A stretch of 64,000 nucleotides of DNA, taken from assembly GCA_963760575.1 (NCBI GenBank), contig CAVXEM010000004.1:8299-72298 (forward strand), written 5' to 3'. The notes beneath the pieces are model-generated. The model worked only from the letters and a program-made list of their open reading frames with translations, did not search any database and had not been told where the DNA came from. This stretch comes from Bryobacterales bacterium. Its GTDB lineage: Bacteria; Acidobacteriota; Terriglobia; Bryobacterales; Bryobacteraceae. This document shows, in pieces, positions 50,281 through 64,000 of this stretch (positions within the stretch are counted from its first letter, which is position 1; every line of letters begins with the position of its first letter). The position numbers were made by a program, and so were the translations under genes.

Positions 50281-50730
50281 TTACTTCTCCACGATTTCCG
50301 GCTTCATAGGGCCCAGAGCACCCAATAGATCGCCCTTCTCTTTCTCGCCCACCTTAAATTTATCCAGCGCCCCCACCAGGTCCTCCACCAGCGCATCGAA
50401 CTGCGGGCCCGTAATCCCCATGCCCATGTGCGCGGTTTTCATATCCTTGCCCATGTACTTGCAAGGGCCGCCGCTGGCTTGGCAGATTTGATCCACCAAC
50501 TTCATCTTGAACGACGCCAGACGCTGCGGGTCCGCCGCCGCGGCCGCAAAGTAGCTATTGATGCGGGTGTCGGCAGCCACACGGCCGACGAATTCATCCA
50601 CCACGGCGCTGATGGCTTTCTTTCCGCCCAGGCGGTCATACAAAGTCTTCTCTTTGGCTTGCGCCACCGGCAGCAGAGTGCATGCGGCCAAGGCGGCGAG
50701 TCCGGTCCAGTTGCGAATCGTCTTCATCAT
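50281..50730 (-). CDS. Group 1 truncated hemoglobin with an N-terminal export signal
   Basis: Start is [25 protein letters not shown] at 50730. The globin part reads ...[33 protein letters not shown]...[22 protein letters not shown].... The rest of the 439-aa track ORF is GC-shadow. Confidence 0.8.
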
Positions 50731-50802
50731 GTGGGTTGTCCGCTCCTTCGTTGGTGTATACGCAAGCGGCGGGATTTTGGATTTGCTAAGGTCACAAGTG
50801 AA

Positions 50803-52101
50803 ATGTCTTCCTCGGATCTTCACTATCAGTCCGGCTTCGGCAACGAATTCGAGACGGAGGCCCTGGCGGGCGCGCTGCCGCGCGAACAAAACTCCCCGCA
50901 AAAGAACCCTTTCGGCCTCTATGGGGAGCAGTTGACGGGCAGCGCATTCACCGCAGCGCGCGGGGTCACCCGATGGTCCTGGACCTACCGCATCCGCCCC
51001 TCCGTTCTGCATGAGCCCTTTCGTGAAATGACGGCAGGGCTGTGGCGCAGTGGACCTTTCAACGACGCGGCCCCGAATCCCAATCAAATGCGCTGGGCGC
51101 CGCTGCCGGTGCCTAGCAAGTCCACCGATTTTCTGGACGGCATCATCACCATGGGCGGCAACGGCGATCCGGCGCTGCAGACCGGCGTGGCGATTCACCT
51201 CTATGCCGCGAACGCTTCCATGCAGGACCGTTTCTTTTATAACGCCGACGGAGAAATGCTGATCGTGCCGCAAGTGGGGAAGCTCCGCTTTCATACCGAG
51301 CTGGGAGTTTTGGAAGTGGCGCCGGGTGAGATCTGCGTGATCCCGCGCGGCATCCGCTTCCGCGTGGAATTGCTGGAGCCCGCTGCGCGGGGCTACATCT
51401 GCGAGAACTACGGCCAGTATTTGCGGTTGCCGGAACTCGGGGTCATCGGCACATCCGGCCTGGCCAACGCGCGCGACTTCTTGGCGCCCGTGGCGTCCTA
51501 TGAAGATCGCGAAGGCGATTTCCGCCTGGTGGCCAAGTTCGGCGGCGGATTGTGGGAAGCGGAGATCGATCATTCCCCGCTGGATGTCGTCGCCTGGCAC
51601 GGCAATTTAACACCCTATAAATACGATTTGGCGAAATTCAATTGCATTAATACGGTGACGTGGGATCATCCCGACCCATCGATTTATTGCGTGCTGCTGT
51701 CACCGTCGGCAATTCCAGGCACGGCCAACATGGAGCTATCTGTTTTCGGCCCCCGCTGGAGTGTGGCGGACCACACCTTCCGTCCGCCTCCCTTTCATCG
51801 CAACATCGCCAGCGAATTTATGGGCTTGATCCACGGGCAATACATCGGTAAGGCGGAAGGCTTCGTGCCGGGCAGCGCGAGTCTACACAACTGCATGAGC
51901 GGGCATGGCCCCGACGCGGAGGCTTTCGAGCGCGGCGTTTCCGCGGAGCCGAAACCGGAGTTTCTGGGGAACACCATGGCATTCATGTTCGAGACGCAGT
52001 TACAAATCCGGTTGACTCAGTTCGCGCTCAAAACCGATTTGGTGGAACGCACTTACTACACCCATTGGCAAGGCATCAAGAAGCAGTTTAAAGCAGGCTA
52101 A
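50803..52101 (+). CDS. hmgA: Homogentisate 1,2-dioxygenase
   Basis: Start is [51 protein letters not shown] at 50803. Also ...WHGN..PYKYDL..F...FHRN..SEFMGLI.G.Y. Confidence 0.92.
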
Positions 52102-53964: not shown

Positions 53965-54494
53965 TGGAATGGAGCGGTGTTGTGCCCGAATTGGACGAAC
54001 CGATTCACTTGTGTACCTATGACAAGCGATGGCCGGATCTGTTCGCCTCCGAAGCACTGCGGATCGCTGCTGCATTGCCGCCGGATGTAGCGATCGAACA
54101 CATCGGAAGCACCGCCGTTCCCGGTCTCTTGGCCAAGCCGATCATCGACCTGATGCTCGGCGTCGAGCCCGGCTGCGATGTACTCAGCATCCGAACGGAG
54201 TTGGGAGTGCTTGGGTACGAGGATCTGGGCGAAGCTGGCGTTCCAGGCCGCCTTTATTTTCGGCGAAGGCGGAAGTCTGCTTTCAACATTGCACTCGTGG
54301 AACGCGGTGGCGCCATATGGAGGTCCAACCTCGCCTTGCGTGATTACCTGCGAACGAACCCCGGCGCCGCGCGGGAGTACGCCGCGGCCAAGCGCTCCGC
54401 CTTAGAGAGCGGCATCAGTTCATTGCTGGCATACTCGGAGTACAAAGGTCCGGTCGTCGATCGCCTGCTCAAGCAAGCGCTTGCCGTCGCATGA
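53964..54494 (+). CDS. GrpB-family protein
   Basis: ...YDKRWPDLF..E...I...L....V.IEHIGSTAVPGLLAKPIIDLM.GV...RDYLR..P....EY...K.... The start is GTG at 53964 (TAGTG overlap) or GTG at 53982. Confidence 0.75.
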   Translation: MEWSGVVPELDEPIHLCTYDKRWPDLFASEALRIAAALPPDVAIEHIGSTAVPGLLAKPIIDLMLGVEPGCDVLSIRTELGVLGYEDLGEAGVPGRLYFRRRRKSAFNIALVERGGAIWRSNLALRDYLRTNPGAAREYAAAKRSALESGISSLLAYSEYKGPVVDRLLKQALAVA

Positions 54495-55231
54495 AGTCAA
54501 TATTATTACTCGGACTCGCGGCCATCGCGCTCTGCGCGCAGAACGTGCAGGTGTATTCGGAGCTCGCGCAAATCAATGACGCGGGCGAGGTGCTAGCGCC
54601 CGAAAACCCTCGCGAAATTCTATCGCCGGCCGTCGCCCGCAACGCTTTCAGCTCGTTTCAAATTGCGATCCAGGTTCCTAAAGGCAAAAAGTTCCTGGTA
54701 TACATGGGCCAGAATCCGGATGACGCCGCGAAAGTCACGCTCTACCGTCGCGCTGCCGCCAAACCGGGGCTGGAGCGCGTGGAGCTGCCGTATTCCGGAG
54801 AATCGTCGCAGGTCCTGTGGATGGATCTGTGGATAGATGCGAACGCCCCCGTGCGCCGCGTGAAAATCGAGCCTCAAGTAGGCATCGATGGCGATTGGGT
54901 GACCTATCCGATGGAAGTGCGCGTGATGGAGCCGGTGGTTCCCAAATCCGTGGCTTTCACACCGGGAGTCGCAAGCCCCTTCGAAGTCATGCGCGCATTC
55001 TTGTGCGGTACGAAAATACGGCCGTCGGCGGGACGTGTCCCGGTCGGCGCGGATCTCCTCTTCCGCAACGCCCAACAGGACGTGGCGCTGGCGGCAGCGG
55101 GCTCCCTGCCGCTTCGCGACGAACTGAAGAAGGCTATGGGCGGCTGCAACGCCAACCCGCCCGCCGATCCCGAATTCTATCTCCGCTTACGCGACTATTT
55201 ATTCACGCCCCTATGGAAAAAGGTGCGCTGA
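54491..55231 (+). CDS. Exported hypothetical protein
   Basis: ATGA overlap with grpB. Signal peptide [17 protein letters not shown]. No known motifs. Confidence 0.55.
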
Positions 55232-55268
55232 AGCGGCCCGCCGCGCTAAACTTGGTATTCGCCCCCGC

Positions 55269-55358
55269 GGAGAGATGGCCGAGTGGTTGAAGGCGCACGC
55301 TTGGAAAGCGTGTTTAGGGGAAACTCTAACGAGGGTTCGAATCCCTCTCTCTCCGCCA
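55269..55358 (+). tRNA. tRNA-Ser (anticodon GGA), CCA encoded
   Basis: Acceptor GGAGAGA/TCTCTCC; anticodon arm CACGC-TTGGAAA-GCGTG; long variable arm; T arm GAGGG-TTCGAAT-CCCTC; then G-CCA. Length 90 nt. Confidence 0.9.
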
Positions 55359-55606
55359 TTTATTCAATAACTTAGATCGCAACTATCGCGCGCAAGCTGA
55401 AGCGGTACTACGGTTACTACGACACACTTGGCTGTGAAGAAACCTGGGGTTTTAGAACGTATCGCGGGGTCACAATAATCCGGCTCCGATCGGCGCAGCG
55501 CCCCAGGTCGCGACCGCGAACGCCTGGCGCGTCCTCAAGCGCCTCCTCTATCTCATCCTGGTCGCGTCGGAGCGCGATGGATCCTTCGAGGCCAGCCGAC
55601 GGATTG

Positions 55607-56488
55607 TCATCCGTTCCTGGATCCCGAGGATCCATGAACGTTGCGGAGTTGAGACGCAGATTCTTTCTGAGAGTTTTTCTCGGTCGCCATTGCTCGTTCG
55701 ATCTCGCGGGCTCCCGCAATCGTTAGAGGAAGAATGCGCCCCACGAGCGTCTCATCCGCGCGGTAGGCTGGTAGCACAAAACTCAAACTGCCGAGCAGAG
55801 ATCCGTCGGCACCGACAATCGCAGCGGCTATTCCGACCCTGCCCCGATCGATCTCACCCCTGGTAACGCATGCGCCCGCACGACGAATGGCGCTGAGCGC
55901 TTTCCGAAACGTTTCCCAGCTATTTCCCAGACCCGCGGCTTTGATTTCCTTCGAGTGTCTTACGAAAAGATCCTTAAGAAATCGGGAGGGCAAGTTTGCC
56001 AGGACGACTTTGGATGTCGCACCACGGAACAATGGCATGGGCTTACCCCGCTCATAGCTCACGAGAACTTGAGGGCCCGAACCCATCACCTGATGAACAC
56101 AGATCACTTTGCCGCGGAAAGCCCGACAAAGAAGGATCGCAGAGCCTTCAGGAAAATACCGAATCAGATCCTCCATGACTGGCCTGCCAGCGATCAAGAG
56201 GGGGTCACAAAGCCGAATCTGCCGATCTAGCTCAATGACCGCCGGACCCAGAGTGTAACCCGCCCTCGGTCCGGGACTGATGAGACCGACGCGGGAAAGA
56301 CTCTTGAAGTACCTGTAGACCGTCGGCGCGGAAGCGTGAAGTCGGGTGGCTGCCTGCTCGACTGTCCAGGCGGGTTGATCCTCCGAGAACAGTTGCAACA
56401 CTGCAAGAAGTCGATCGCCGCTGCTCTGCGGCGCTTGATCGGAACTGGATCTCATTTGAGTGGATATAGGTTGAAATTGTAGGGGCAT
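55607..56488 (-). CDS. IclR-family transcriptional regulator
   Basis: N-terminal wHTH ...LLAVLQLFSEDQPAWTVEQAATRLHASAPTVYRYFKSLSRVGLI..., followed by an IclR effector-domain-like region ...PLFRGATSKVVLA...GIAAAIVGADGSLLGSLSF.... The C-terminal tail is unusually long. Confidence 0.85.
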   Translation of the reverse strand: MPLQFQPISTQMRSSSDQAPQSSGDRLLAVLQLFSEDQPAWTVEQAATRLHASAPTVYRYFKSLSRVGLISPGPRAGYTLGPAVIELDRQIRLCDPLLIAGRPVMEDLIRYFPEGSAILLCRAFRGKVICVHQVMGSGPQVLVSYERGKPMPLFRGATSKVVLANLPSRFLKDLFVRHSKEIKAAGLGNSWETFRKALSAIRRAGACVTRGEIDRGRVGIAAAIVGADGSLLGSLSFVLPAYRADETLVGRILPLTIAGAREIERAMATEKNSQKESASQLRNVHGSSGSRNG

Positions 56489-56581
56489 CGTGATTTGGTT
56501 CGGAGCATAAAAGCAACCGCCGGCATGCTGCCTCCTTCACGTGCGGAATCAAGCTCCTGCCAAGCTGCAAGATGACACGAG

Positions 56582-56600
56582 TTTCTCATAATACGATAAT
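56582..56600. promoter_or_regulatory. Candidate operator S1 (TTTCTCATA-A-TACGATAAT) in the iclR / SnoaL-like divergent intergenic region
   Basis: Matches the perfect palindrome at 62518-62536 in 15 of 18 arm positions. Confidence 0.4.
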
Positions 56601-56674
56601 ACAGCCAATGTGGTACATTGACCGAAGTTACGGCCTTTCGAAAAGATCATTGAGATTAGATAGAGGAGATCGCT

Positions 56675-57127
56675 ATGAAAATGCCTAGGGTATTTCTTGC
56701 AGTAGCTTTGTGCTGTTTGACAGGTGCGCTAGCGGCTCAGAATCGAGACGTGAAGACGGAAGAAGCCAATAAGAAAATGGTGCTCACGTTCTACCAAGCG
56801 TTTTTCGGGGATCACGATCTCAGCGCGGCAGAAAAGTACCTTGACCCCGGCTACGTTCAGCACAATCCCGGACTGCCGGACGGGCGTGACGCTCTCATCA
56901 ATATGGCGAAAGGGATGTTCGCGAACACGCCCAAGGGCAAGCCGGATATTCGCAGAGTTGCCGCCGACGGCGACTTAGTTTGGCTCCATGTTCGCGGTCA
57001 ATTCGGGCCGGGACCTGCAAGCTCTGTCGTGGACATCTTCCGCGTCAAGAACGGCAAGATCGTCGAGCACTGGGACACTATTCAATCGATTCCCGAAAAG
57101 TCGGCGAACCCGCATCCGATGTTTTAG
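56675..57127 (+). CDS. Exported SnoaL/NTF2-like protein
   Basis: An AGAGGAG lies upstream. Signal peptide MKMPRVFLAVALCCLTGALAAQ. ...NKKMVLTFYQAFF......KYLDPGYVQHNP...G...........V.....DGDLVWLH.......VDIFRVKNGKIVEHWD. Confidence 0.75.
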   Translation: MKMPRVFLAVALCCLTGALAAQNRDVKTEEANKKMVLTFYQAFFGDHDLSAAEKYLDPGYVQHNPGLPDGRDALINMAKGMFANTPKGKPDIRRVAADGDLVWLHVRGQFGPGPASSVVDIFRVKNGKIVEHWDTIQSIPEKSANPHPMF

Positions 57128-57236
57128 CCGGCCTTGCGAGTCTCTCTAAAGATTCTGAGCCAATTTGCGATGCCTAACCACTGCCTTGCGTCCCAACCTC
57201 GCAACGCAATTCCCATAGAAGCCCGATCGGCTAGTG

Positions 57237-57255
57237 ATTTGCAGAGTATGATAAT
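57237..57255. promoter_or_regulatory. Candidate operator S2 (ATTTGCAGA-G-TATGATAAT), ~135 nt upstream of the DUF6152-like gene
   Basis: The right arm is identical to the 62518 palindrome (9/9). The left arm matches 6/9. Confidence 0.35.
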
Positions 57256-57389
57256 TTTGCTCATGCCTCAATGGCCCGCAACCTGGTGGCGATTTTTAGA
57301 AATCGCTGTTCGGCTTGAAAAGCACCGGTCTCCAGACTACGACCACTGGCCTCTTCCGGTGACAGTATACCGACCCTAGGAGAAGCTCA

Positions 57390-57809
57390 ATGCGTTATTG
57401 CAAATTGTTTTTGCCCATTTTGAGCACGTCGCTTTTGCTCGCTCCGCTGGCTGTGGCGCATCATTCCGATGCGGCTTACGACAAGGCCATCACCAAGACG
57501 ACTTCCGGCACCTTGAAGGAGTTCGACTGGAACGCGCCGCATGCTGGCGTATTGGTCGAGTACAAGAATGAGAAAGGAGAGACGGCCGAGATCTACGCCA
57601 CGACCTTTGCGCCGCAGCAGCTCGCGCGCCAAGGCTTTGCCCCGAAGGATTTCAAACCGGGACAGAAAGTGGAGCTGGTGTGGCACCCGGCGCGCAGCGG
57701 AGCTGGCGGCGGACTTTTGGTCAGCTTAAAGCTGGAAGACGGCCGCGTCGTGAGTGCCGGCGGGCCACCGGGCCAGCAAACGGCAACACCTCCGGCCCCC
57801 AAACCCTAA
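57390..57809 (+). CDS. Small exported protein (DUF6152-like, from memory). The mature N-terminus is predicted to be His-His-Ser.
   Basis: An AGGAGAAG lies upstream. The signal peptide is ...LLLAPLAVA|HHSDAAYD. Also ...GTLKEFDWNAPHAGVLVEY...GQKVELVWHPARSG.... Confidence 0.6.
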   Translation: MRYCKLFLPILSTSLLLAPLAVAHHSDAAYDKAITKTTSGTLKEFDWNAPHAGVLVEYKNEKGETAEIYATTFAPQQLARQGFAPKDFKPGQKVELVWHPARSGAGGGLLVSLKLEDGRVVSAGGPPGQQTATPPAPKP

Positions 57810-57814
57810 TCGTT

Positions 57815-58543
57815 GTGCGAGGCGAGCCATTGAATATTGCAAACCCGAAAAAGCCCACAGAGTTGGGGATTGCGGCGCTTATGTTCCTGGGAGTGTTGCC
57901 CCTCTCGGCTCAGGAGCGACCGAACCTGGAGGGCGTTTGGAAACTCGCTCAGCCGCAAGCCGCGCTCTTGCCGAGCGATAACCGGCCCGTGCCTTTTACC
58001 GAGAAGGGCCGGGCGCAATATGAGCAGAACAAGCTCGCGGCCGAGAAGGGCGACTATGCTTTCGACGCGACGATGTCGCGCTGTTCGTCGCCCGGCCTGC
58101 CGCGCCTGATGCTGACGCCCGGCCGTTTCCGAATCTTTCAGCGCCCGCTAGTAATCGGCATGGCGTTCGAGTGGAACCGCTTGTTCCGGCAGATCGACCT
58201 GCGAAGCGGTCCGCATGAGCGTCCCCTGATTGACACGATGAAAGGCGTGACCTATGGAACGTGGGAAGGCGGAACGCTCGTGGCGCGCTCCTATGGATTC
58301 TCCGAGAAAACGCTGCTTGACCAGCGGATTCCCCACAGTGACCAATTGGAGCTGGTCGAGCGTATTCGGCTGCGGGACCGGAGTACGTTGGAGGATCGTA
58401 TTACCATTACTGATCCCGAAATGTTTACTCGCCCGTGGGAAGCGATGCTCTCCTACAAGCGTCAACCTGACGACGCTTTCCCGTTTCCGGAAGACGTTTG
58501 CTTGGATCGAAAGAACGCGGGTCAGCCGCCGCTCCCGCGGTGA
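57815..58543 (+). CDS. Exported protein, 'GDTLVVET' secreted family, copy X1
   Basis: The GTG lies 5 nt after the upstream stop. Signal ...GIAALMFLGVLPLSAQ. ...LEGVWK...CSSPGLPR...GVTYGTWEGGTLVARSYGF...ITITDPEMFTRPWEA...EDVCLD. Confidence 0.6.
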   Translation: MRGEPLNIANPKKPTELGIAALMFLGVLPLSAQERPNLEGVWKLAQPQAALLPSDNRPVPFTEKGRAQYEQNKLAAEKGDYAFDATMSRCSSPGLPRLMLTPGRFRIFQRPLVIGMAFEWNRLFRQIDLRSGPHERPLIDTMKGVTYGTWEGGTLVARSYGFSEKTLLDQRIPHSDQLELVERIRLRDRSTLEDRITITDPEMFTRPWEAMLSYKRQPDDAFPFPEDVCLDRKNAGQPPLPR

Positions 58544-58575
58544 TCGCCACTGGTGTGAAGAGGAGATTAGCCAAG

Positions 58576-59412
58576 ATGATACGGTACGGCCGATGCGGAA
58601 AGCTGTTAGTAGCGAGCTTGGTATTCGTCGGAATGGCGGTGGCGCAGGCGCAGCCTCCATCGGGACCGACCCGCGATAGTGCACCCCCAGGCGGCGCGCC
58701 GCCGCCGGCGCTGCCGCCTCTGCCGGCCGACGCACCCAAACCTTCGCCTGATCCCAGAAACCTGGAGGGCACTTGGTTTCACGATCAGCGCTTGGTATTT
58801 CGGGTTGAGACCGACCTGTACGGCAACCGCCTGCCCTTTACAGCCAAGGGGCAGCGCATCCGCGATCGCCGCGTTAAATCGACCTATGAAGATGGCTTGC
58901 CTTATGCCAACGCCTCGGCGGAATGCAAGCCTCCCGGGCAGACCTGGCAGCTCGATTTGAACTTCCCGTTTCAGATCTATCAATCGAGCAAAGAGATTGT
59001 GTTTGTGTTCCAGGAATATCACGGCATGTGGAATATCCGCATGAATCAGCCGCATCGGAATTCGGGCCCCCGCGAATACTTCGGAGACTCCGTGGGCCGA
59101 TGGGACGGAGACACGCTGGTGGTCGATACCGTCCGCTACAAACAAGGGCTGTGGATCGACGTGGACGGCACACCGACGTCCGCCGAGGCGCACCTGATAC
59201 AGAGGATACGCCGTATCGACTACGGCGGTCCCAAGCTCGAAATTCTCACCACGGTCGATGATCCGGAAATGTATACGACGCCTTGGTCGATCGTCCGCAC
59301 CTTCGCATGGCGCCCGGACAAGGTGATCTTCGAGGAATACAACTGCGAATGGCAGGTGGGAACGCCTGGCGCATTGACGCGCTATGGCCTGGTTCCGGAA
59401 CCCGAGGAGTGA
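58576..59412 (+). CDS. Exported protein, 'GDTLVVET' secreted family, copy X2
   Basis: The ATG is preceded by GAGGAG. Signal ...LLVASLVFVGMAVAQAQ. ...LEGTWFH...CKPPGQ...GDSVGRWDGDTLVVDTVRY...TVDDPEMYTTPWS...EEYNCEW. Confidence 0.65.
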   Translation: MIRYGRCGKLLVASLVFVGMAVAQAQPPSGPTRDSAPPGGAPPPALPPLPADAPKPSPDPRNLEGTWFHDQRLVFRVETDLYGNRLPFTAKGQRIRDRRVKSTYEDGLPYANASAECKPPGQTWQLDLNFPFQIYQSSKEIVFVFQEYHGMWNIRMNQPHRNSGPREYFGDSVGRWDGDTLVVDTVRYKQGLWIDVDGTPTSAEAHLIQRIRRIDYGGPKLEILTTVDDPEMYTTPWSIVRTFAWRPDKVIFEEYNCEWQVGTPGALTRYGLVPEPEE

Positions 59413-59415
59413 CTC

Positions 59416-59919
59416 ATGAAGATGCAACGCAACTGGCACTTGAGTTTGACGGCGGTGGTGTTGTTCGGTGCCGCTCCAGCCCCGGCCCAAGCGCCCCAAG
59501 AAGCAGCTAACAAAAAATTAGTGCTGGATTTTTACAATGAACTCTACAAGGGGGAAGCCGACGGCAATCTGAAGGATCGGATTGCAGGCATAGCGGAGAA
59601 GTATATGCTCCCCGATTATATTCAGCACAACCCAGCGTTTGGCGGTTCCGGTGGTGGGCGTGAAGCGTTCATTCGCGCGATGCAACAACAGCCGGCGCGG
59701 CCGCCAAACCCAAACTTTAAACCTCCGGAAACCGTTGCGGTCATGGCGGAAGGCGACCGCGTGATGCTATTCACCAAGCGGGAGGTCCCGGCTGGCAGAG
59801 ATGGTCAAGTGGCGTCTGTATACATCTTCAACATGTTTCGTATAAAGGACGGCAAGTTTGCAGAGCACTGGGACGCGGGAGCCGGACCGCCGGGCGGTGG
59901 CACCCGCGAGTCCCGCTAA
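59416..59919 (+). CDS. Exported SnoaL/NTF2-like protein (paralog of 56675)
   Basis: The ATG lies 3 nt after the X2 stop. A signal peptide is present. ...NKKLVLDFYNELY......KYMLPDYIQHNP...FNMFRIKDGKFAEHWD. Confidence 0.7.
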   Translation: MKMQRNWHLSLTAVVLFGAAPAPAQAPQEAANKKLVLDFYNELYKGEADGNLKDRIAGIAEKYMLPDYIQHNPAFGGSGGGREAFIRAMQQQPARPPNPNFKPPETVAVMAEGDRVMLFTKREVPAGRDGQVASVYIFNMFRIKDGKFAEHWDAGAGPPGGGTRESR

Positions 59920-60122
59920 ATTTGAAGAGGACACTTAGATGGCCGTAGAAAATGGCCGGTCGATGACCTTTGGATTGAGCTAGCCAGGCAATCCGAACCA
60001 GGCGCTTACGTAAACACAAAAACCGCCCCAACCGTGGATGCAAAAACGCGTGCTGCTGGTCCAGACAACACCTACCTAAGAACCTCTATCGGTCCCGTAG
60101 CGCGAGCAGGGCATGCAGGGTA

Positions 60123-60332
60123 GAGGAGCAATTCCACCGCGTCGACCGGGACACCCTGGAACTGTCGATGACGATTGATGATCCTAAGGTGTACACGAGG
60201 CCTTGGGTAGCTCTCGATCAGTTGCGTTTCAAGTTGCAACCACCGAATACGGATATCCGCGAAATGCTATGCTCACCCTCAGAGATTGCCGCCTATAACC
60301 GGAAACACGCCGCTCCCGGTGCGGGAAAATAA
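60123..60332 (+). pseudogene. 3' remnant of a 'GDTLVVET'-family gene
   Basis: Only the family tail is present: EEQFHRVDRDTLELSMTIDDPKVYTRPWVALDQLRFKLQPPNTDIREMLCSPSE...*. The upstream frame translates to non-protein-like sequence, and there is no N-terminal part or signal peptide. Confidence 0.55.
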
Positions 60333-60342
60333 TCGAGGGAAT

Positions 60343-60783
60343 ATGAGTTTGTTGAAGAACGCCTACAACTGGAGACCCTACTTACTGAGTCTGCTGCGTA
60401 TTGGAGTCGGGTTGGTGTTTTTCCAGCATGGTGCCGAGAAACTCTGGGGATTCGCTGGCGCACGAACGGTTGGCATGCATTTCACTTTAATTGGACTTGC
60501 CGGACCGCTCGAAGTCGGAGGTGGGCTATTACTGGTGCTTGGACTGTTCACGCGCACAGTTTCGTTCATTCTCTGCGGAGAAATGGCAGTAGCCTATTTC
60601 ACGTTGTGGGCGCCTCGTGGATTCTTTCCCATTAACAATGGCGGCGAAGAAGCGGTGATCAATTGTTTCCTATTTCTTTGGCTTGTCACAGCCGGACCGG
60701 GCCCCTGGAGCCTGGACGATTTATTTCACGGAAATTACAAGAAGACGAAGGCCGATCTCAAGCCGACGGGCACGCGGATTTGA
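60343..60783 (+). CDS. DoxX-family membrane protein
   Basis: ...LLSLLRIGVGLVFFQHGAEKLWGF...GPLEVGGGLLLVLGLFTR...NGGEEAVINCFLFLWL...GPGPWSLD. Confidence 0.8.
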   Translation: MSLLKNAYNWRPYLLSLLRIGVGLVFFQHGAEKLWGFAGARTVGMHFTLIGLAGPLEVGGGLLLVLGLFTRTVSFILCGEMAVAYFTLWAPRGFFPINNGGEEAVINCFLFLWLVTAGPGPWSLDDLFHGNYKKTKADLKPTGTRI

Positions 60784-60813
60784 TGCCAGCCGCGAGCAAG
60801 CGCGGAAAGGAGT

Positions 60814-61266
60814 ATGCACATGACTGAGGCAATTAGTTCTTGGGAAGGGTACGCACGATCGGTGCTCCGAATCATACTTGCCTTTGTGTTTTCGCTGCAT
60901 GGATACCGCCACCTCTTCGACGCGTTCCCGCGACTGGGCGGCCGTCGGGGCGCGGTACCGATGGCGCTGGACGCATTGCCGTCCGTGGTTGGCGTCTTGG
61001 AAATCGGCGGCGGACTGTTATTACTAATCGGACTATTCGCCCGATCCACGGCCCTAGTCCTATGTTGCGAATTGCTGGTCGCCTATTTTTTTGTGGCGGC
61101 GCCCCGAGCGATATGGCCGATCCGCAACGGTGGAAACGAAGTGATCCTCTATTTCTTGGCCTTTCTATACTTGGCTGTGAACGGGCCGGGTACGTGGAGT
61201 TTGGATCATTCTCTAGAAGAGCCTAGGGCGGAATTGGCTGGGCCGAGCGTTCGTGGAAAGACATGA
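60814..61266 (+). CDS. DoxX-family membrane protein (paralog)
   Basis: ...VLRIILAFVFSLHGYRHLF...VGVLEIGGGLLLLIGLFAR...NGGNEVILYFLAFLYL...GPGTWSLD. The second ATG (60820) has better spacing from the AAGGAG. Confidence 0.75.
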   Translation: MHMTEAISSWEGYARSVLRIILAFVFSLHGYRHLFDAFPRLGGRRGAVPMALDALPSVVGVLEIGGGLLLLIGLFARSTALVLCCELLVAYFFVAAPRAIWPIRNGGNEVILYFLAFLYLAVNGPGTWSLDHSLEEPRAELAGPSVRGKT

Positions 61267-61273
61267 GGATCAC

Positions 61274-62419
61274 ATGGTAACTGCACGGAAAGTATTATCG
61301 ATATCGAAACGGGTTCCGGGGCTCATGCTGGCTCTCGCAGTGGGGGTCGGGGCACTTTTGACAGCCGCACCCGGGGCGGCGCAATTGGCTGGCCAGCCTA
61401 GAACGGCTGAGCAAGTTTACAAGAACATCAAAGTGCTTCAGGGAAGCCCCGCCGACAGCTTCAATCAAGGGATGCATCTCATTTCGGGCGCGCTCGGAGT
61501 TAACTGCGAGTATTGCCACGTGGAAAGGGACTTCGTCAGCGACGACGTGAAGAAGAAAGACGTGGCACGCGGGATGATTACCATGACTGCCGAATTGAAT
61601 CAGCGGTCCTTCCAAGGCAAACCAGTGATTACTTGCTATACCTGTCACCAGGGCAACGCCATCCCGGTGAATATGCCGGTGCTTCCGCGACCCCGCTATC
61701 CTGAAGTAAGGAAGGCCGAGCCCGGCTTGCCTTCTGCTTCGCAAATTCTTTCTAACTACGTCGCTGCATTGGGGGGCGAGCAGAATCTGAAGAAGATCAA
61801 AACCCGGCTCATTACAGCGCAACAGGATGTTCCGACCGGACCTGGCGGAGTTAACCCCGCGCCGGCGCAGGTCGAGATCTATCAGAAAGCACCGAATCTT
61901 TTGCTGCGGGTGGCAAAAACCAATCAGGCAACGCTACTGAGTGGCTTCGACGGAACCACGGCGTGGGGGCAAGACCCCAGGGGACGGGTGGTCCCAGCGG
62001 TTGAATTGGAGGCGATTCGCGAGCGCAGAGGCGCTGATCTTTACGAGCCGCTGAATATCGCTAAGGAATACTCGGACTTAAAAGTTGAGGGTACCGAAAA
62101 GGTTGGTGACCTGGAAGCTTACGTTCTCGTCGGCCGGCCTTCCGAAGGTATTCCCGAGCGGTTTTACTTCGATACGAAATCCGGCCTTCTAGTCCGGAGA
62201 CTCACGGTCGTGCCAACAGCGGCCGGCGACAGCCCCTTTCAAGTGGATTACGAGGACTACAGAAATGCAGGAAGCGGGGTGAAGTACCCGTTTCGCATCC
62301 ATATGGAGCCCGCGGGATCCAGAACCGAACTAATAACGCACTCGACGATCCAGGTTCAGCAAATCCAAGAGAATATCGCGATAGACAACGCTAAGTTTGT
62401 AAAACCCGAATCAAAGTAG
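61274..62419 (+). CDS. Exported di-heme c-type cytochrome (reaction-centre-cytochrome-c-like N-terminal module plus a ~230-aa beta-rich C-terminal domain)
   Basis: A GAGGA lies 5 nt upstream. A signal peptide is present. ...VYKNIKVLQG.PA..F...M..IS.ALGVNCEYCH.......D..K.....R.M..M....N........ITCYTCHQG... contains two CxxCH sites. Confidence 0.7.
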   Translation: MVTARKVLSISKRVPGLMLALAVGVGALLTAAPGAAQLAGQPRTAEQVYKNIKVLQGSPADSFNQGMHLISGALGVNCEYCHVERDFVSDDVKKKDVARGMITMTAELNQRSFQGKPVITCYTCHQGNAIPVNMPVLPRPRYPEVRKAEPGLPSASQILSNYVAALGGEQNLKKIKTRLITAQQDVPTGPGGVNPAPAQVEIYQKAPNLLLRVAKTNQATLLSGFDGTTAWGQDPRGRVVPAVELEAIRERRGADLYEPLNIAKEYSDLKVEGTEKVGDLEAYVLVGRPSEGIPERFYFDTKSGLLVRRLTVVPTAAGDSPFQVDYEDYRNAGSGVKYPFRIHMEPAGSRTELITHSTIQVQQIQENIAIDNAKFVKPESK

Positions 62420-62476
62420 GTTCCCCACGCACTTCCCGCAGCAAAGGAGTTTGTACGGTGTCCCATCGGGATTCGT

Positions 62477-62495
62477 TTTGTCATAATACGACTGT
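62477..62495. promoter_or_regulatory. Candidate operator S3 (TTTGTCATA-A-TACGACTGT), effectively a half-site
   Basis: Left arm matches 7/9 and right arm 5/9 versus the perfect palindrome. It shares TCATAATACGA with S1. Confidence 0.3.
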
Positions 62496-62517
62496 TCTCT
62501 TGCACACTGAGTCGCCG

Positions 62518-62536
62518 ATTATCATAGTATGATAAT
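62518..62536. promoter_or_regulatory. Candidate operator S4: perfect palindrome ATTATCATA-G-TATGATAAT, ~140 nt upstream of the 62675 gene
   Basis: Perfect 9-nt inverted arms around a single central base, in a 255-nt AT-rich intergenic region. Confidence 0.45.
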
Positions 62537-62674
62537 TTGATCAGGTTAGCATGGAGCCGACGCATCTTATCAAGAAGAATTTCTCAAACGAATGCTAACG
62601 CTCACGGGCTGGATTGGAACGGCAGGAACCAGCTTAATATAGTAGCGATTGCAGTTGAAGAGTAAGAGGACCTG

Positions 62675-63571
62675 ATGATCAAAAATGCCCGAAAATTTCT
62701 GACCTACTCCGGGTTGTTCTCGTTGGCGTGGCTGTGGGCGGCCCTGCCGGCTTTAGCGCAGATCGACATTTCCGGCGAATGGATGCCGCGGATCCATGAA
62801 GACCAGCCGCATCGCGTTCCGGGGCCGGAGTTGGGCGATTACACGGGACTTCCGATTAATGCCGCAGCCCGCCAGAAGGCCACTAGTTGGGATGCGTCGA
62901 TTTTGTCGCTGCCGGAACGCATGGCGCAGCCGCATCCCGCTCAGTACTTCATGCGCGGGCCGGGGCCGCAAATGCGCATCAGCAAAGTTATCGATGCAGT
63001 TACCCAGACGTTAATCGCATACACGCTCGAGGGCGTATTCGGGCGCGATGACCGCGTGATCTGGATGGATGGACGCCCGCATCCGTCAGAGTATGCCGAG
63101 CACACCTGGGATGGCTTCTCCACCGGCGCGGTTCACGGGAATCAACTTATCATCACCACCACGCATATGAAGTACGGTGTGATTCAGCGCAACGGCGTGC
63201 CCGCCAGCCCTCACGCGACCATGACAGAACAGTTCATCCGGCACGGGGATTACTTGACGCTGGTGTCGATCATAGATGATCCCGTGTACCTCGAAGAACC
63301 GTTCATCCGGACTTCCACGTGGCTGCGAAGCTCGAACCTGACGCTCGACCAGCGCTTCATTTTCGAGGTAGTGGATGAAATTGCCACACGTGCACCGGGA
63401 TCCGTGCCGAGCTATCCGCTGGGAACTAAACAAGACGGCTACGCGCTGAAGCATGGGCTGCCGTTCGAAGCCACGCAAGGCGGCAAGGCCACGACATACC
63501 CGGAGTACGAAATGGTTATCCGCAAGATGCTGGCCAATATGCCGAAGACGCCGATCCAGGCAGCCAAGTGA
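62675..63571 (+). CDS. Exported hypothetical protein, a distant relative of the 'GDTLVVET' family
   Basis: An AAGAGGA lies upstream. Signal ...LAWLWAALPALAQ. ...ISGEW...HTWDGFSTGAVHGNQLIITTTHM...IIDDPVYLEEPF... shows the same order of elements as the family, but diverged. Confidence 0.5.
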   Translation: MIKNARKFLTYSGLFSLAWLWAALPALAQIDISGEWMPRIHEDQPHRVPGPELGDYTGLPINAAARQKATSWDASILSLPERMAQPHPAQYFMRGPGPQMRISKVIDAVTQTLIAYTLEGVFGRDDRVIWMDGRPHPSEYAEHTWDGFSTGAVHGNQLIITTTHMKYGVIQRNGVPASPHATMTEQFIRHGDYLTLVSIIDDPVYLEEPFIRTSTWLRSSNLTLDQRFIFEVVDEIATRAPGSVPSYPLGTKQDGYALKHGLPFEATQGGKATTYPEYEMVIRKMLANMPKTPIQAAK

Positions 63572-63572
63572 G

Positions 63573-64000
63573 ATGGCGATGAAATTCAGGTTAGCAGTTC
63601 CCTTTCTCGTCCCGATGCTGAGCGTGTGTGCGCAACAAGCGCCGATTATCACCGCGCTCACGGCCGAAAGGCCCGAGATCCTGAAGGTGGAAGGGATTGA
63701 GATTCTTCACGTTCAGAAGAACATGTACCTTCTCGCCGGGGGCGGCGCGAACGTCGCGGTCCAGATCGGCGAAGGCGGTGTCCTGGTGGTTGACGCGGGC
63801 AACGAGGGTCAGGGGGAGAAGATCTTCGCGGCGATTCGCCACCTGACGCACAAGCCCTTGCGCTACCTGGTGAACACTAGTCCGGACGCCGATAAAGTCG
63901 GCGGCAATGCCGGCTTGGTGCAGGCGGCCGGGGGGATCACGGGAATCATCGCCGGCGCGGCGGGGCGCCCCGCCAACGCCGGTATCGAAACGATCGCGCA
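63573..64000 (+). CDS. Exported MBL-fold-like protein with a degenerate metal motif; 3' end cut by window edge
   Basis: The ATG lies 1 nt after the upstream stop, and the frame is open to nt 64000. Signal MAMKFRLAVPFLVPMLSVCAQ. ...VQKNMYLLAGGGANVAVQIGEGGVLVVDAG......I..AI..LT.KPLRYLVNTSPDADKVGGN has SPDADK where HxHxDH is expected. Confidence 0.55.
   Translation, partial: MAMKFRLAVPFLVPMLSVCAQQAPIITALTAERPEILKVEGIEILHVQKNMYLLAGGGANVAVQIGEGGVLVVDAGNEGQGEKIFAAIRHLTHKPLRYLVNTSPDADKVGGNAGLVQAAGGITGIIAGAAGRPANAGIETIA

Follow-up and report, generated by a model that had tools for sequence, protein, structure and literature searches.

Organization of the locus downstream of tRNA-Ser

Within the 64-kb window (the whole stretch of DNA analyzed), a tRNA-Ser(GGA) gene (55269–55358, + strand; ARAGORN, and Rfam at 63 bits) forms the left boundary of a gene cluster, as the initial annotation had proposed. 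The cluster encodes, in order, an IclR-family regulator on the − strand, followed by a SnoaL protein, DUF6152, X1, X2, a second SnoaL protein, two DoxX proteins, a cytochrome c, X3 and an MBL-fold protein, a content and order first read from the sequence alone and now backed by Pfam and NCBIfam. An N-terminal hydrophobic segment and an A-x-A-type site occur in all soluble products of the cluster, in agreement with the signal peptides previously assigned to every one of them. Spacers measure 3–32 nt within units and, as originally described, are long between units (234, 262, 423 and 255 nt, the first being 186 nt if the regulator gene uses a possible start as far upstream as 56488). The near-zero spacers claimed for the remaining window did not hold, with gaps of 250–700 nt at about ten places on a rough ORF map.

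The AT-richness reported for the region is correct on average (GC 0.568 vs. 0.612 upstream, i.e., 4.4 points lower, with 0.594 for the poorest-GC upstream 8.6-kb window) but patchy: the dip is due to the spacers (0.46–0.54), DoxX_A (GC 0.52, GC3 0.58), the cytochrome, SnoaL_A and iclR, while DUF6152, X1 and X2 (GC 0.60, GC3 0.71) match the flanks. Overall, four parts make up the locus: a DUF6152-X1-X2-SnoaL cassette, an MBL-P290-X3 group, a DoxX-DoxX-cytochrome c unit, and an adjoining IclR gene, along with a palindrome that precedes three of the units. The first observation of a distinct cluster is in this sense partly confirmed, and its interpretation as a periplasmic electron-transfer, metal or small-molecule processing system under ligand control partly supported.

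A conserved cassette of exported proteins

The first cassette gene (57390–57809, + strand) encodes a small exported DUF6152 protein (PF19649, 65.6 bits) with a mature N-terminus of His-His-Ser. All full-length DUF6152 homologues in the examined loci carry the corresponding A-HH[S/G/A] motif, which bears out the mature His-His N-terminus noted earlier; invariant residues are H24, H25, S26, Y30, D31 and H51, and H99 is at least 90% conserved. The AlphaFold2 model (mean pLDDT 81, core >90) predicts an OB fold, with weak Foldseek matches to OB-fold proteins (E ≥ 4.6e-3). The periplasmic copper chaperone CusF has an OB fold as well, and so shares the fold predicted for DUF6152, although Foldseek did not place it among the best matches for DUF6152. 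A metal or redox role for DUF6152 appears conceivable.

X1 (57830–58543, + strand) is an exported member of a superfamily, here called X, that has no Pfam model, and neither Pfam, NCBIfam nor PDB sequences gave any match to it. Its 425 homologues are all named “hypothetical protein,” and a profile search (E ≤ 1e-3) placed 9,136 cluster representatives in the superfamily. The AlphaFold2 model of X1 (pLDDT 90.5) has FABP/CRBP barrels as best PDB matches (Foldseek E 4e-4, which is weak; target-normalised TM 0.55–0.63), and an FABP/calycin-like beta-barrel is accordingly the predicted fold. Invariant polar residues of the family are D79, R92, N116, D164, D195 and R211, with no invariant histidine or methionine found. 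X2 (58576–59412, + strand) is a paralogue of X1 (29% identity, E 6e-18); the two are neighbors in nearly all loci and occur as natural X1-X2 fusion proteins (e.g., P0160, 529 aa), and X2 is probably a partner subunit of X1 in a heterodimer.

SnoaL_B (59416–59919, + strand; SnoaL_2 37.5 bits) completes the conserved cassette as its fourth gene and encodes an exported NTF2/SnoaL-like protein; this family is also found in X-SnoaL (P0187, P0194) and SnoaL-SnoaL-X fusions. SnoaL_A (56675–57127, + strand; SnoaL 62.7 bits, SnoaL_2 62.6 bits), likewise exported and NTF2/SnoaL-like, is a lineage-specific paralogue of SnoaL_B (35% identical, E 4e-18) that is missing from sister Bryobacterales loci.

The core cassette is widely conserved, periplasmic and previously undescribed: it is found in Acidobacteriota, Alpha- and Gammaproteobacteria, including many soil and bog bacteria. 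Of 47 genome loci anchored on X1 and spanning 8 kb or more, 42 contained DUF6152, 29 SnoaL and 25 a TonB-dependent receptor. In a DUF6152-anchored metagenome sample, 42 of 53 DUF6152 genes had a co-directional X gene no more than 1.5 kb downstream (X in 27/29 and SnoaL in 19/29 of the loci of at least 8 kb). All these counts overstate independence, since many sampled loci come from few genomes or related species. The association of DUF6152, X and SnoaL, on which the initial annotation had staked the module, is strong, and X-X and X-SnoaL gene fusions exist as well. Neither DUF6152 nor DUF6644, a membrane protein found in pairs near the cassette, was mentioned in the literature searched, and RefSeq names cassette-type products hypothetical, DUF6152 or DUF6644, consistent with the earlier description of exported products without assigned biochemistry.

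Copy number can be high: Novosphingobium sp. Rr 2-17 carries at least 10 loci, and one Caulobacteraceae MAG from a bog at least 13. Elsewhere the cassette lies beside TonB-dependent receptors, genes for aromatic ring cleavage, DUF6644 pairs and cytochromes; no TonB-dependent receptor was found in or beside the cluster of the window. Same-strand aromatic catabolic neighbors in Sphingomonas and gammaproteobacterial MAGs include an FAD_binding_3 hydroxylase, an ADC-like protein, a VOC extradiol dioxygenase, an FAA hydrolase and a VAO/PCMH-type flavoprotein, together with a putative aldehyde dehydrogenase that was recognized by inspecting its sequence and not through Pfam; catabolic neighbors in Acidobacteria include Amidohydro_2 and a two-domain VOC protein. 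YceI adjoins the cassette in Proteobacteria, MFS transporters lie near some cassettes, and several loci carry a sub-module of SnoaL, DUF6644 and DUF6644 with either cytochrome b561 or a Moco oxidoreductase behind it. Genes linked to metal transport also recur, with HupE_UreJ_2 near the cassette in 8/47 loci and P-type ATPase genes nearby in L056 and L143. DUF6644 has weak DUF2214/CopD similarity, its CopD score (17.4 bits) falling well short of the threshold (32.1). Lignin-derived aromatics are carried by TonB-dependent receptors in Sphingomonads, with DdvT as an example (PMC7376174), a precedent for such a receptor carrying aromatics.

The DoxX-cytochrome unit and the X3-MBL-P290 trio

DoxX_A (60343–60783, + strand; DoxX 46.5 bits) is a small integral membrane protein, which scored 40 as HvfX (cut-off 80), and DoxX_B (60814–61266, + strand; DoxX 44.4 bits) is its paralogue (38% identity, E 4e-21). 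Alongside the X1/X2 and SnoaL_A/SnoaL_B pairs, this pair substantiates the paralogue multiplication described earlier. The next gene (61274–62419, + strand) encodes an exported di-heme c-type cytochrome (NF033196 c_type_nonphoto 75.1 bits, cut-off 70; CytoC_RC 70 bits) with heme motifs CEYCH and CYTCH. Its PDB matches to PufC are limited to residues 38–170, in a PufC-like N-terminal domain, and the C-terminal domain (~230 residues) has no Pfam match. Some homologues bear the JGI label “outer membrane lipoprotein-sorting protein” (LolA-type).

The initial annotation had asked whether DoxX co-occurs with the other families. DoxX was found beside the cassette in 0/47 genome loci and beside cytochrome homologues in 0/7, and is not a conserved partner; the DoxX-DoxX-cytochrome c unit is specific to this lineage. 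The proposed cytochrome link fared better: DUF6152 directly follows the cytochrome in five of seven homologues, from independent acidobacterial loci, with an X-type gene next in four, and the same cytochrome-DUF6152 adjacency occurs in L004, L005 and L007. The usual neighbor of this cytochrome family is therefore DUF6152-X, not DoxX. CbiM/CbiQ-ABC genes occur in two of the seven, adjoining cytochrome-DUF6152 in L056 and, in L060, the cytochrome together with a TonB-dependent receptor. The position of the DoxX pair is taken elsewhere by two DUF6644 membrane proteins and, judged by gene position only, DoxX-DoxX-cytochrome may be the equivalent of a DUF6644 pair with a cytochrome.

X3 (62675–63571, + strand), the first gene of an X3-MBL-P290 trio, was previously considered a distant X relative, as profile comparison now supports (hhalign of X vs. 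X3: 96.8%, E 2.6e-10). The exported MBL-fold protein that follows (5′ part at 63579–64000, + strand) crosses the window end; the full-length copy in L001 (329 aa; Lactamase_B 44.4 bits) is followed by P290, whose ORF likewise lies just past the window end and encodes a further X relative (hhalign of X3 vs. P290: 99.7%, E 3.3e-27). The MBL metal motif is indeed degenerate, as earlier stated, reading DADK here and [GS][PA]DxD[HK] in the family in place of the expected HxHxDH. The trio is conserved in L004–L007, L026, L033 and L062, and missing from sister contig L002.

An IclR regulator and a shared palindrome

The IclR-family regulator (55607–56440, − strand; HTH_IclR 35.8 bits, IclR_C 52.1 bits) is encoded divergently to the exported-protein genes, and scored too low for the PcaR/PobR subfamily (69.9, cut-off 284.75). 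L004, L005 and L007 each have an orthologue (72% identity) at the corresponding place. The divergent IclR gene to which the cluster had been linked is thus present, but the link is restricted to Bryobacterales, Proteobacteria having GntR-like or TetR regulators instead. Across cassette loci the regulators seen were IclR, GntR-like, TetR and MarR, all organic-ligand-sensing kinds; no riboswitch and no regulator of the metal-sensor families (Fur, NikR, CsoR/ArsR or MerR types) was seen at these loci, and Rfam found nothing in the cluster spacers.

Scanning the 64 kb for ATTATC-N7-GATAAT with up to two mismatches yielded three matches (0.69 expected), each upstream of a cluster unit. Candidate operator site 1 (TTTCTCATAATACGATAAT, 56582–56600) precedes the SnoaL_A start codon by 93 nt and overlaps the −10 element of a promoter-like site at 56572–56600. 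Site 2 (ATTTGCAGAGTATGATAAT, 57237–57255) precedes the start codon of DUF6152 by 153 nt, and its equivalent ATTCGCATATTATGATAAT is conserved 135 nt upstream of DUF6152 in L004, L005 and L007. Site 3, a perfect palindrome (ATTATCATAGTATGATAAT, 62518–62536), is found 157 nt before the start codon of X3, and a counterpart (ATTATCACATCAGGATAAT) immediately precedes the MBL-P290-X3 operon in the same three loci. That the only three palindromes in 64 kb all stand at cluster units and are conserved in the sister genus suggests a shared regulon, with the palindrome as a putative IclR binding site. The scan found no operator-like site upstream of the DoxX unit, which may therefore fall outside this regulon.

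Proposed function of the cluster

It is tempting to speculate, at somewhat less than an even chance, that this is a ligand-responsive composite accessory locus around a periplasmic cassette that binds and redox-processes a hydrophobic aromatic ligand (a phenolic or quinone-type compound, or its metal complex). The compound would enter through a TonB-dependent receptor in most lineages and be bound in the periplasm by the X1/X2 barrels and the NTF2-like protein, with DUF6152 as a redox or metal-bearing partner. A c- or b-type cytochrome and two small membrane proteins (DoxX-DoxX in this lineage, DUF6644-DUF6644 elsewhere) would carry electrons between the membrane and these periplasmic proteins, the direction of flow being conjectural. 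IclR would repress SnoaL_A, DUF6152-X1-X2-SnoaL_B and X3-MBL-P290 via ATTATC-N7-GATAAT until the ligand appears. A hydrophobic ligand is suggested by the FABP/CRBP-like model of X1, the SnoaL/NTF2 domains, the YceI neighbors and the LolA-type names of cytochrome homologues, and its aromatic nature by the catabolic neighbors, the kinds of regulators and the multiple copies per genome. The redox component is suggested by the cytochrome-DUF6152 adjacency and by the cytochrome b561 or Moco oxidoreductase that follows SnoaL-DUF6644-DUF6644. Several observations count against this reading as a whole: the Foldseek matches are weak (X, E 4e-4; DUF6152, none below 4.6e-3), the cluster of the window is without a TonB-dependent receptor, its DoxX-DoxX-cytochrome unit is conserved nowhere else, and the recurring HupE_UreJ_2 and CbiM/CbiQ-ABC genes, like the His-rich N-terminus of DUF6152, point to metal.

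The main alternative, a credible though rather unlikely one, is metal-chelate uptake, in which the TonB-dependent receptor (adjacent in 25/47 loci) would import a metal on an organic (e.g., phenolic or catecholate) ligand, the cytochrome c would reduce the metal, and the His-His terminus and conserved histidines of DUF6152 would capture it and pass it to an inner-membrane permease. Siderocalin holds catecholate siderophores, and the calycin barrels would hold the organic ligand in a similar way. The universal His-His terminus, the conserved H51 and H99 and the predicted OB fold (also that of CusF) all fit such a role for DUF6152, while the X family is without an invariant histidine or methionine. 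Similarly, membrane proteins linked to metal import recur (paired DUF6644, HupE_UreJ_2, and CbiM/CbiQ-ABC in L056 and L060), and P-type ATPase genes lie nearby in L056 and L143, but the CopD similarity of DUF6644 is far under threshold, the regulators are of organic-ligand-sensing rather than metal-sensor families, and at least 10 copies per genome inside aromatic catabolic operons would be odd for metal homeostasis.

A passive periplasmic shuttle, with barrels and NTF2-like proteins only ferrying hydrophobic nutrients from the outer-membrane receptor to inner-membrane transporters without chemistry, seems improbable. The cytochrome and DoxX proteins would then be accidental neighbors in this lineage, as might be expected from their absence at most cassette loci and from the DoxX unit having no upstream operator-like site, yet in 5/7 independent acidobacterial loci the cytochrome is directly followed by DUF6152 and then, in most cases, by an X-type gene, and cytochrome b561 and Moco oxidoreductase genes follow the SnoaL-DUF6644 pair. 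The FABP-like fold of X and the MFS transporters near some cassettes would suit a carrier, but the many invariant polar residues of X and the invariant His cluster of DUF6152 point to something beyond a simple hydrophobic pocket.

Sister contigs and integration at the tRNA

Identity between the window and sister contig L001 rises from about 93% to 98–100% near position 55,500, at the tRNA. Sister contig L002 retains only the last 21 nt of tRNA-Ser, beside relaxase, PemK and TrwB-like genes. A mobile element lies there between the tRNA remnant and iclR, ending at a 21-nt copy of the tRNA 3′ end that immediately precedes iclR. The tRNA-Ser is thus an integration hot spot in the sister strain, and, since the element ends at this copy, the cluster was the flank in that insertion event. 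An integrase adjoins the cluster in L004; neither an integrase nor the direct repeat of the tRNA 3′ end sought at the suggestion of the initial annotation was found within 11.8 kb downstream. The tRNA flank is limited to this lineage, the sister genus carrying the same cluster without it. A classical genomic island at tRNA-Ser, its cargo assembled by transfer and not by shared function, would explain the boundary tRNA, the lower GC, the identity step, the units present or absent between strains, the use of tRNA-Ser as integration site in L002 and the integrase beside the cluster in L004, but is very unlikely given the lack of an integrase and repeat over the 11.8 kb downstream, the flank-like GC and GC3 of the core genes, the tRNA-free cluster of the sister genus, and a cassette linkage across phyla and by gene fusions that argues against random cargo.

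The preferred reading of an accessory locus around a conserved cassette sits alongside clear signs of rearrangement. The gene remnant first placed at 60123–60332 extends here over 60093–60320 (+ strand) and encodes the C-terminal end (76 residues) of a protein of the X family, X′ (blastx 62% identity, E 6.5e-30), matching residues 187–262 of X′ in the cytochrome-DUF6152-X′ operon of L004, L005 and L007. Strains further differ by the presence or absence of whole units and by one deletion variant, which together with the remnant confirms the earlier picture of a rearranging locus.

Gene Content and Conservation of the Cluster

Downstream of tRNA-Ser(GGA) (55269-55358, plus strand, with ARAGORN and Rfam in agreement), open reading frames (ORFs) and domain matches fit the gene content and order proposed in the initial annotation. 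An IclR-family regulator on the minus strand (55607-56440, domain matches), whose stop codon lies 248 nt from the tRNA, is followed on the plus strand by SnoaL_A (56675-57127, domain matches), by a four-gene unit of DUF6152 (57390-57809, Pfam PF19649), X1 (57830-58543, an ORF without family model), X2 (58576-59412, an ORF and a paralogue of X1) and SnoaL_B (59416-59919, domain matches), by DoxX_A (60343-60783), DoxX_B (60814-61266; one domain match each) and a di-haem c-type cytochrome (61274-62419, NCBIfam and haem motifs), and by X3 (62675-63571, profile similarity to X) with an MBL-fold gene running from 63579 beyond the window end (domain match on the full-length copy of the metagenome contig L001). 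Upstream of DoxX_A, the gene remnant already suspected in this spacer is real: it codes for the C-terminal 76 residues of an X-type protein (60093-60320), 62% identical to X', the X-type gene of three sister-genus Bryobacterales loci (L004, L005, L007). Every soluble product begins with a hydrophobic segment closing at an A-x-A-type site, in keeping with the signal peptides first assigned to them.

Spacers measure 234, 262, 423 and 255 nt between units and 3-32 nt within them. The long spacers noted for the cluster are thus present, but the near-zero spacing attributed to the rest of the window is not, as about ten gaps of 250-700 nt occur elsewhere in an ORF map that is rough, includes some spurious ORFs and was used for this check only. 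A search of the long spacers with Rfam brought up neither a riboswitch nor any other RNA, and promoter and terminator scans of the locus stayed at chance level.

To evaluate which of these genes travel together, we collected 51 genome loci anchored on X1, the nearest being Bryobacterales (Acidobacteriota) MAGs with 82-83% X1 identity. Across the 47 loci of at least 8 kb, DUF6152 was found in 42, SnoaL in 29, a TonB-dependent receptor in 25, paired DUF6644 membrane proteins in 13, a PufC-like cytochrome in three (Bryobacterales only) and DoxX in none, counts that are inflated by paralogous loci and related species. A scan of metagenomes anchored on DUF6152 gave a matching picture, with X at most 1.5 kb downstream on the same strand for 42 of 53 DUF6152 genes, and X in 27 of the 29 loci of at least 8 kb. 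The co-occurrence expected from the window therefore holds for DUF6152, X and SnoaL, and fails for DoxX. The resulting cassette (DUF6152-X1-X2-SnoaL_B in the window) occurs in Bryobacterales, Sphingomonadales, Caulobacteraceae, Methylocella, Rhodoblastus, Nitrospirillum, Steroidobacteraceae and Hydrocarboniphaga, with many loci from peat or bog samples, and it is multiplied in some genomes (at least 10 loci in Novosphingobium sp. Rr 2-17, at least 13 in one Caulobacteraceae MAG).

DUF6152, SnoaL-like and X Proteins

The DUF6152 protein of the window matches PF19649 over profile positions 6-97 of 98 (65.6 bits against a threshold of 27, E 4.5e-18). In 37 homologues, an A-H-H-S motif split between A and H by the predicted signal-peptide cleavage site is invariant, as are Y30, D31 and H51, and H99 is conserved in at least 90%; all full-length DUF6152 ORFs of the loci examined carry A-H-H-[S/G/A]. 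The mature His-His N-terminus read from the single window sequence is thus a family trait, and the free N-terminal histidine, the second histidine and the two further conserved ones suggest a metal site. The predicted structure is an OB fold (pLDDT 81, core >90), whose best fold matches (SSB, PriB and LysRS-N) are not significant, and a profile search of PDB chains found none related by sequence.

Both SnoaL-like proteins exceed the cut-offs of PF07366 (28.4 bits) and PF12680 (27 bits), SnoaL_A with 62.7 and 62.6 bits and SnoaL_B with 35.0 and 37.5 bits, respectively. They are exported, unlike the polyketide cyclase SnoaL itself, and no polyketide genes were seen near them.

X1 has 425 detectable homologues, all named "hypothetical protein" and none with a Pfam domain. 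A profile built from 41 members matched 9,136 of 1.84 billion cluster representatives at E <= 1e-3, of which 3,528 remained at E <= 1e-10 (clusters at 50% identity, ~9,000 in all). No Pfam or NCBIfam family was found for X1, X2, X3, diverse X representatives or P290, a 290-aa ORF beyond the MBL gene, and sequence searches of PDB chains with X1 and the X profile gave nothing usable; neither X nor DUF6152 has a solved structure. Invariant residues of the superfamily include W37, Y64, D79, C85, R92, W115, N116, W145, D164, D195, W203, R211 and C224, with C85 and C224 probably forming a disulphide.

The AlphaFold2 model of X1 (pLDDT 90.5) finds its best Foldseek matches among the fatty-acid- and retinol-binding barrels (FABP, CRBP), weakly (E 4e-4) and with superpositions of TM 0.55-0.63 normalised to the target, 0.34-0.39 normalised to the query and an rmsd of 5.6-7 Å. 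In FABPs, an Arg/Tyr pair in the last strand holds the ligand carboxylate, and X likewise has a Tyr-x-Arg (Y209, R211) in its last strand. However, X shares only 9-15% identity with these calycins, is ~100 residues larger, is exported, and has a conserved cysteine pair (C85, C224) as well as adjacent paralogue pairs; its place among the calycin/FABP-like barrels is putative.

Within the superfamily, X1 and X2 are paralogues of each other (29% identity, E 6e-18), and the distant relatives X3 and P290 are linked to X by hhalign (96.8% for X3, 95.6% for P290, and 99.7% for X3 against P290). Members occur as adjacent pairs (X1-X2, P290-X3), natural X1-X2 fusions exist, and together these observations suggest that X proteins may form heterodimers. 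X-SnoaL fusion proteins also exist. P290 and X3 belong with the MBL gene to a second conserved trio, found in L004-L007, L026, L033 and L062. The MBL protein itself scores 44.4 bits against PF00753 (cut-off 22.7, full-length L001 copy) and is without the HxHxDH motif, the family having [GS][PA]DxD[HK] and the window copy S-P-D-A-D-K.

The X family has a sixth member in the window, a solitary gene at a great distance from the cluster (2600-3355, plus strand, 251 aa, signal peptide) with unrelated genes on either side. Its nearest match is the X-like domain of proteins that contain CarboxypepD_reg and lie beside cytochrome-DUF6152 operons; such proteins of 330-350 aa, paired at the end of cytochrome-DUF6152-X operons, also match X in BLAST (L055 359-1402, L056 259-2248 and L061 194-2198). 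From these matches, they may represent a further X branch fused to a different N-terminal domain.

The Cytochrome and the DoxX Pair

The cytochrome, with haem motifs CEYCH and CYTCH in its translation, scores 75.1 bits (cut-off 70) against NF033196, a family of non-photosynthetic PufC relatives. A photosynthetic PufC (NF040706) is rejected by score (74.6 against 150 bits) and by the presence of two haem motifs, not four. The likeness to PufC is confined to the N-terminal 100 residues with their two CXXCH motifs, and the alignment to PufC chains spans residues 45-155 only. PufC is a tetrahaem cytochrome subunit of photosynthetic reaction centres, whereas the window protein has two haem motifs. 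Genes for a reaction centre are absent from its surroundings, and it ends in an additional domain of ~230 residues, for which there was no Pfam match and whose "LolA-like" label has a JGI name as its sole source.

The neighbourhoods of seven cytochrome homologues (50-75% identity) point to partners other than DoxX. DUF6152 directly follows the cytochrome in five of the seven, with an X-type protein (266-308 aa) next in four of these five and an unclassified 165-aa ORF in between in the fifth (L061). CarboxypepD_reg-type outer-membrane barrels, which we read as TonB-dependent receptors, adjoin three homologues, CbiM/CbiQ-ABC genes adjoin two, and DoxX adjoins none. In the sister genus, a cytochrome-DUF6152-X' operon lies on the other side of iclR. 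This operon, the adjacency to DUF6152 in five of seven homologues and the X' remnant in the window together indicate that the canonical partner of the cytochrome is DUF6152-X, and that the cytochrome-DUF6152-X' operon was broken in the lineage of the window, where DoxX-DoxX-cytochrome now stands after SnoaL_B. As an arrangement of genes in the window the DoxX-DoxX-cytochrome unit stands, then, while DoxX as a conserved partner does not (none of 47 loci, none of seven homologues). The unit has a low GC3 (0.58-0.62), and by analogy the DoxX pair plus cytochrome might be seen as the positional counterpart of the DUF6644 pair plus cytochrome elsewhere.

Both DoxX proteins clearly belong to PF07681 (46.5 and 44.4 bits, threshold 23.6). 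The HvfX family of Cu-binding RiPP maturation (NF050144) was rejected at 40.1 and 37.9 bits against 80, and no DUF692- or DUF2063-type neighbours were seen near the two genes. An argument from DoxX-linked hydroquinone resistance (MhqP) was dropped because a published study describes MhqP as an azoreductase.

A Candidate Operator

The regulator carries HTH_IclR (35.8 bits, cut-off 22) and IclR_C (52.1 bits, cut-off 24) domains and falls far below the PcaR/PcaU/PobR subfamily (TIGR02431, 69.9 against 284.75 bits). A 6-7-6 palindrome, ATTATC-N7-GATAAT, occurs three times in the 64 kb at up to two mismatches, against 0.69 expected, and only 2 of 100 shuffles reach three. The copies lie 93 nt upstream of SnoaL_A (56582-56600, overlapping a promoter-like -10 element), 153 nt upstream of DUF6152 (57237-57255) and 157 nt upstream of X3 (62518-62536, a perfect match), and no site was found upstream of DoxX. 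Matching sites precede DUF6152 and the MBL-P290-X3 operon in L004, L005 and L007 (at 9425 and 15046 in L004). The adjacent IclR protein is the obvious candidate to bind this putative operator.

Genomic Context and Possible Function

In Proteobacteria, a 469-aa GntR-like protein and YceI typically precede the cassette, and two DUF6644 proteins follow SnoaL, often with cytochrome b561 or a Moco oxidoreductase beyond. DUF6644 proteins have weak, sub-threshold matches to DUF2214 and CopD, and one conserved histidine in the first helix of each paralogue. Genes flanking the cassette, many of them on its strand, encode a TetR regulator, an FAD_binding_3 aromatic hydroxylase, an ADC-like protein and a VOC extradiol dioxygenase, as well as an FAA hydrolase, a VAO/PCMH-type flavoprotein and a putative aldehyde dehydrogenase (this last one from sequence inspection, without Pfam check); HupE_UreJ_2 and a di-haem cytochrome c occur together in eight cassette loci. 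RefSeq names these proteins "DUF6152 family protein", "DUF6644 family protein", "hypothetical protein" or "TonB-dependent receptor". SnoaL-DUF6644-DUF6644 sets are also seen without DUF6152 or X (L039 12270-13302; L025 12260-13279 and 1474-2477), and there the next gene encodes cytochrome b561 or an MsrP-like Moco oxidoreductase.

No family in the locus has a characterised member near enough for function transfer, and the literature searched held no mention of DUF6152 or DUF6644 and, for combinations of the domain names, nothing relevant. A parallel in organisation is provided by the TonB-receptor catabolic uptake loci of Sphingomonads, where TonB-dependent receptors transport aromatics (e.g., DdvT for the lignin-derived biphenyl 5,5'-dehydrodivanillate, PMC7376174). 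The proteobacterial cassette likewise stands beside TonB-dependent receptors and aromatic hydroxylase or ring-cleavage genes, under small-molecule-sensing regulators. However, the described Sphingomonad systems are without DUF6152, calycin pair or SnoaL in the periplasm, and the cluster of the window, unlike them, has no receptor gene. An accessory set in the periplasm that is regulated and connected with catabolism and with uptake across the outer membrane is a familiar kind of system; neither the parts found here nor the way they are combined are familiar.

Taken together, the ligand-binding folds, the His-rich OB protein, the cytochromes and TonB-dependent receptor, the aromatic genes and the regulators of organic-ligand-sensing type lead us to favour, tentatively, a system that binds a hydrophobic compound of phenolic or quinone type in the periplasm and processes it by redox chemistry. 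The predicted calycin barrels and NTF2-like proteins, as small-ligand-binding folds, would work with the His-rich OB-fold protein in the periplasm. Cytochromes and small membrane proteins are associated with this set, a TonB-dependent receptor would usually supply it, its genes are embedded in aromatic catabolic clusters, and its control would lie with regulators sensing organic ligands. p-Cresol methylhydroxylase-type flavocytochromes offer a precedent for such chemistry, oxidising a phenolic in the periplasm and passing the electrons to a c-type cytochrome. VAO/PCMH-type FAD_binding_4 genes do lie between cassettes in several loci, but the cluster of the window is without a flavoprotein, and PchF and PchC have no relatives among the cassette proteins.

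The main rival, which we consider unlikely, is that the system takes up a metal chelate, releases the metal reductively and passes it on by way of DUF6152. The DUF6152 histidines would suit this role, as would the HupE, CbiMQ and CopD-like neighbours, but the regulator types, the copy number per genome and the catabolic context speak against it. Known metal systems resemble the locus in part. CopC-CopD and the related YcnI/YcnJ likewise combine a small exported beta-protein with a His-first mature chain and small multi-helix membrane proteins; CopC, however, is a cupredoxin-like sandwich where DUF6152 is a predicted OB fold, and these systems have no counterpart to the calycin pair, SnoaL or the cytochrome. 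Copper import of the CopC-CopD type was rejected on the OB model of DUF6152, on the score of DUF6644 against CopD (17.4 bits, cut-off 32.1) and on the presence of DoxX, not DUF6644, in the window. CusF, a chaperone of periplasmic Cu(I)/Ag(I), is like DUF6152 as modelled in being a small, exported OB-fold protein with histidines near its mature N-terminus, but its Met/Trp site is not evident in DUF6152, CusF is absent from the top 50 Foldseek matches of DUF6152 and no sequence similarity was found.

Returning to redox processing of phenolics or quinones, it is tempting to speculate on a fuller version, which we also consider unlikely. DUF6152-X-X-SnoaL, the small-membrane-protein pair and the cytochrome would constitute a redox enzyme system of the periplasm that is widespread, hitherto unrecognised and coupled to TonB-dependent receptors. 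DUF6152 would hold a metal at a histidine-brace-like site made by its free N-terminal His-His and oxidise or reduce hydrophobic phenolics or quinones bound in a calycin heterodimer, with dedicated cytochromes connecting it to the respiratory chain. A purely passive shuttle is less likely still, and we regard it as improbable.

The X superfamily and DUF6152 are common in Acidobacteriota and Proteobacteria of soil, peat and freshwater, with at least 10 copies in some genomes. A fixed cassette, as evidenced by gene fusions, a shared regulatory palindrome and recurrent partners (TonB-dependent receptors, cytochromes, paired membrane proteins and aromatic ring-cleavage genes), gives what had been a group of hypothetical proteins the shape of a defined system whose parts can be tested. 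If its targets in the periplasm are phenolics, quinones or metal complexes of these, the cassette bears on peatland carbon and metal cycling, and on substrate uptake by aromatic-degrading bacteria. Should the metalloenzyme reading be true, it would represent a new class of extracytoplasmic metalloenzyme, relevant to phenolic turnover in peat and soil.

The tRNA Flank and the History of the Locus

The weakest of the explanations considered, that the cluster is a cargo island of unrelated genes, is to our mind likewise improbable. In composition, the cluster is indeed AT-richer than its surroundings (GC 0.568 against 0.612 upstream, where the minimum over 8.6 kb is 0.594), but the shift is patchy: DUF6152, X1 and X2 have flank-like GC (0.60) and GC3 (0.71), and the dip stems from the spacers (0.46-0.54), DoxX_A (0.52), the cytochrome (0.55), SnoaL_A and iclR.

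The same locus was recovered on two metagenome contigs, L001 and L002. From 46 kb onwards the window is collinear with L001, which extends 3 kb past the window end, through the MBL gene (329 aa) and P290 to a convergent Zn-alcohol dehydrogenase and a VOC-family protein. The dehydrogenase (L001 18788-20176, minus strand), just past the window, has an N-terminal RR motif (SRRDVIRKGAA) followed by a hydrophobic stretch and, on this signal, may be exported via the Tat pathway; the VOC/glyoxalase-family gene after it encodes 165 aa. Compared with L001, the window is 89-97% identical (mean 93.7%) as far as ~55,500 and 97.6-100% identical over the remainder; around the step (window 54500-56000), the ~93% level still includes the tRNA itself. 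This step implies that the shared history of the cluster is more recent than that of the left flank, and suggests that the cluster may have been exchanged between strains more recently.

L002 (ERZ25039517 contig_95964) has only 55336-62479 in common with the window; it is without X3-MBL-P290, the dehydrogenase gene directly following the cytochrome gene. Its left side (1-8096) is a mobile element with relaxase (Replic_Relax), PemK toxin and a TrwB/DUF87-like ATPase, whose border, immediately in front of iclR, is a 21-nt copy of the 3' end of tRNA-Ser (corresponding to window 55336-55358); no intact tRNA was found in the 8 kb of L002 examined. This junction indicates that a mobile element integrated at tRNA-Ser with the iclR cluster as its flank, and hence that tRNA-Ser(GGA) is an active integration site in the population.

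For the cluster itself, a classical tRNA-integrated island is not demonstrated. Of what such an island would show, the tRNA boundary and a differing composition and history are present, but neither window 55359-64000 nor the 11.8 kb of L001 that follow the tRNA contains a called integrase, and no second tRNA 3' end (up to three mismatches) was found in the window or over the same 11.8 kb downstream in L001. In L004, L005 and L007 the cluster is present with no tRNA within 10 kb. A phage-type integrase (tyrosine recombinase, L004 3028-4134, plus strand) adjoins the X' end of the cytochrome-DUF6152-X' operon in L004.

The locus is clearly variable. L144 (GCA_030841365.1, JAUPWX010660485.1), a noisy contig with a left flank unlike that of the window, is without 57727-60377 (2,651 bp). 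The gap opens in the 3' end of DUF6152, closes in the 5' end of DoxX_A and creates an in-frame DUF6152::DoxX fusion (P0124); it may reflect a genuine deletion or a fault of assembly. To the left of the tRNA, the gene calls of L001 5581-7819 (~52.2-54.5 kb of the window) are short fragments with HgmA_C, Cytochrome_CBB3 and PQQ_2 matches, as against two long ORFs in the window (50428-52101 and 52114-53964), and ~570 nt (window 53958-54526) are unaligned between the two.
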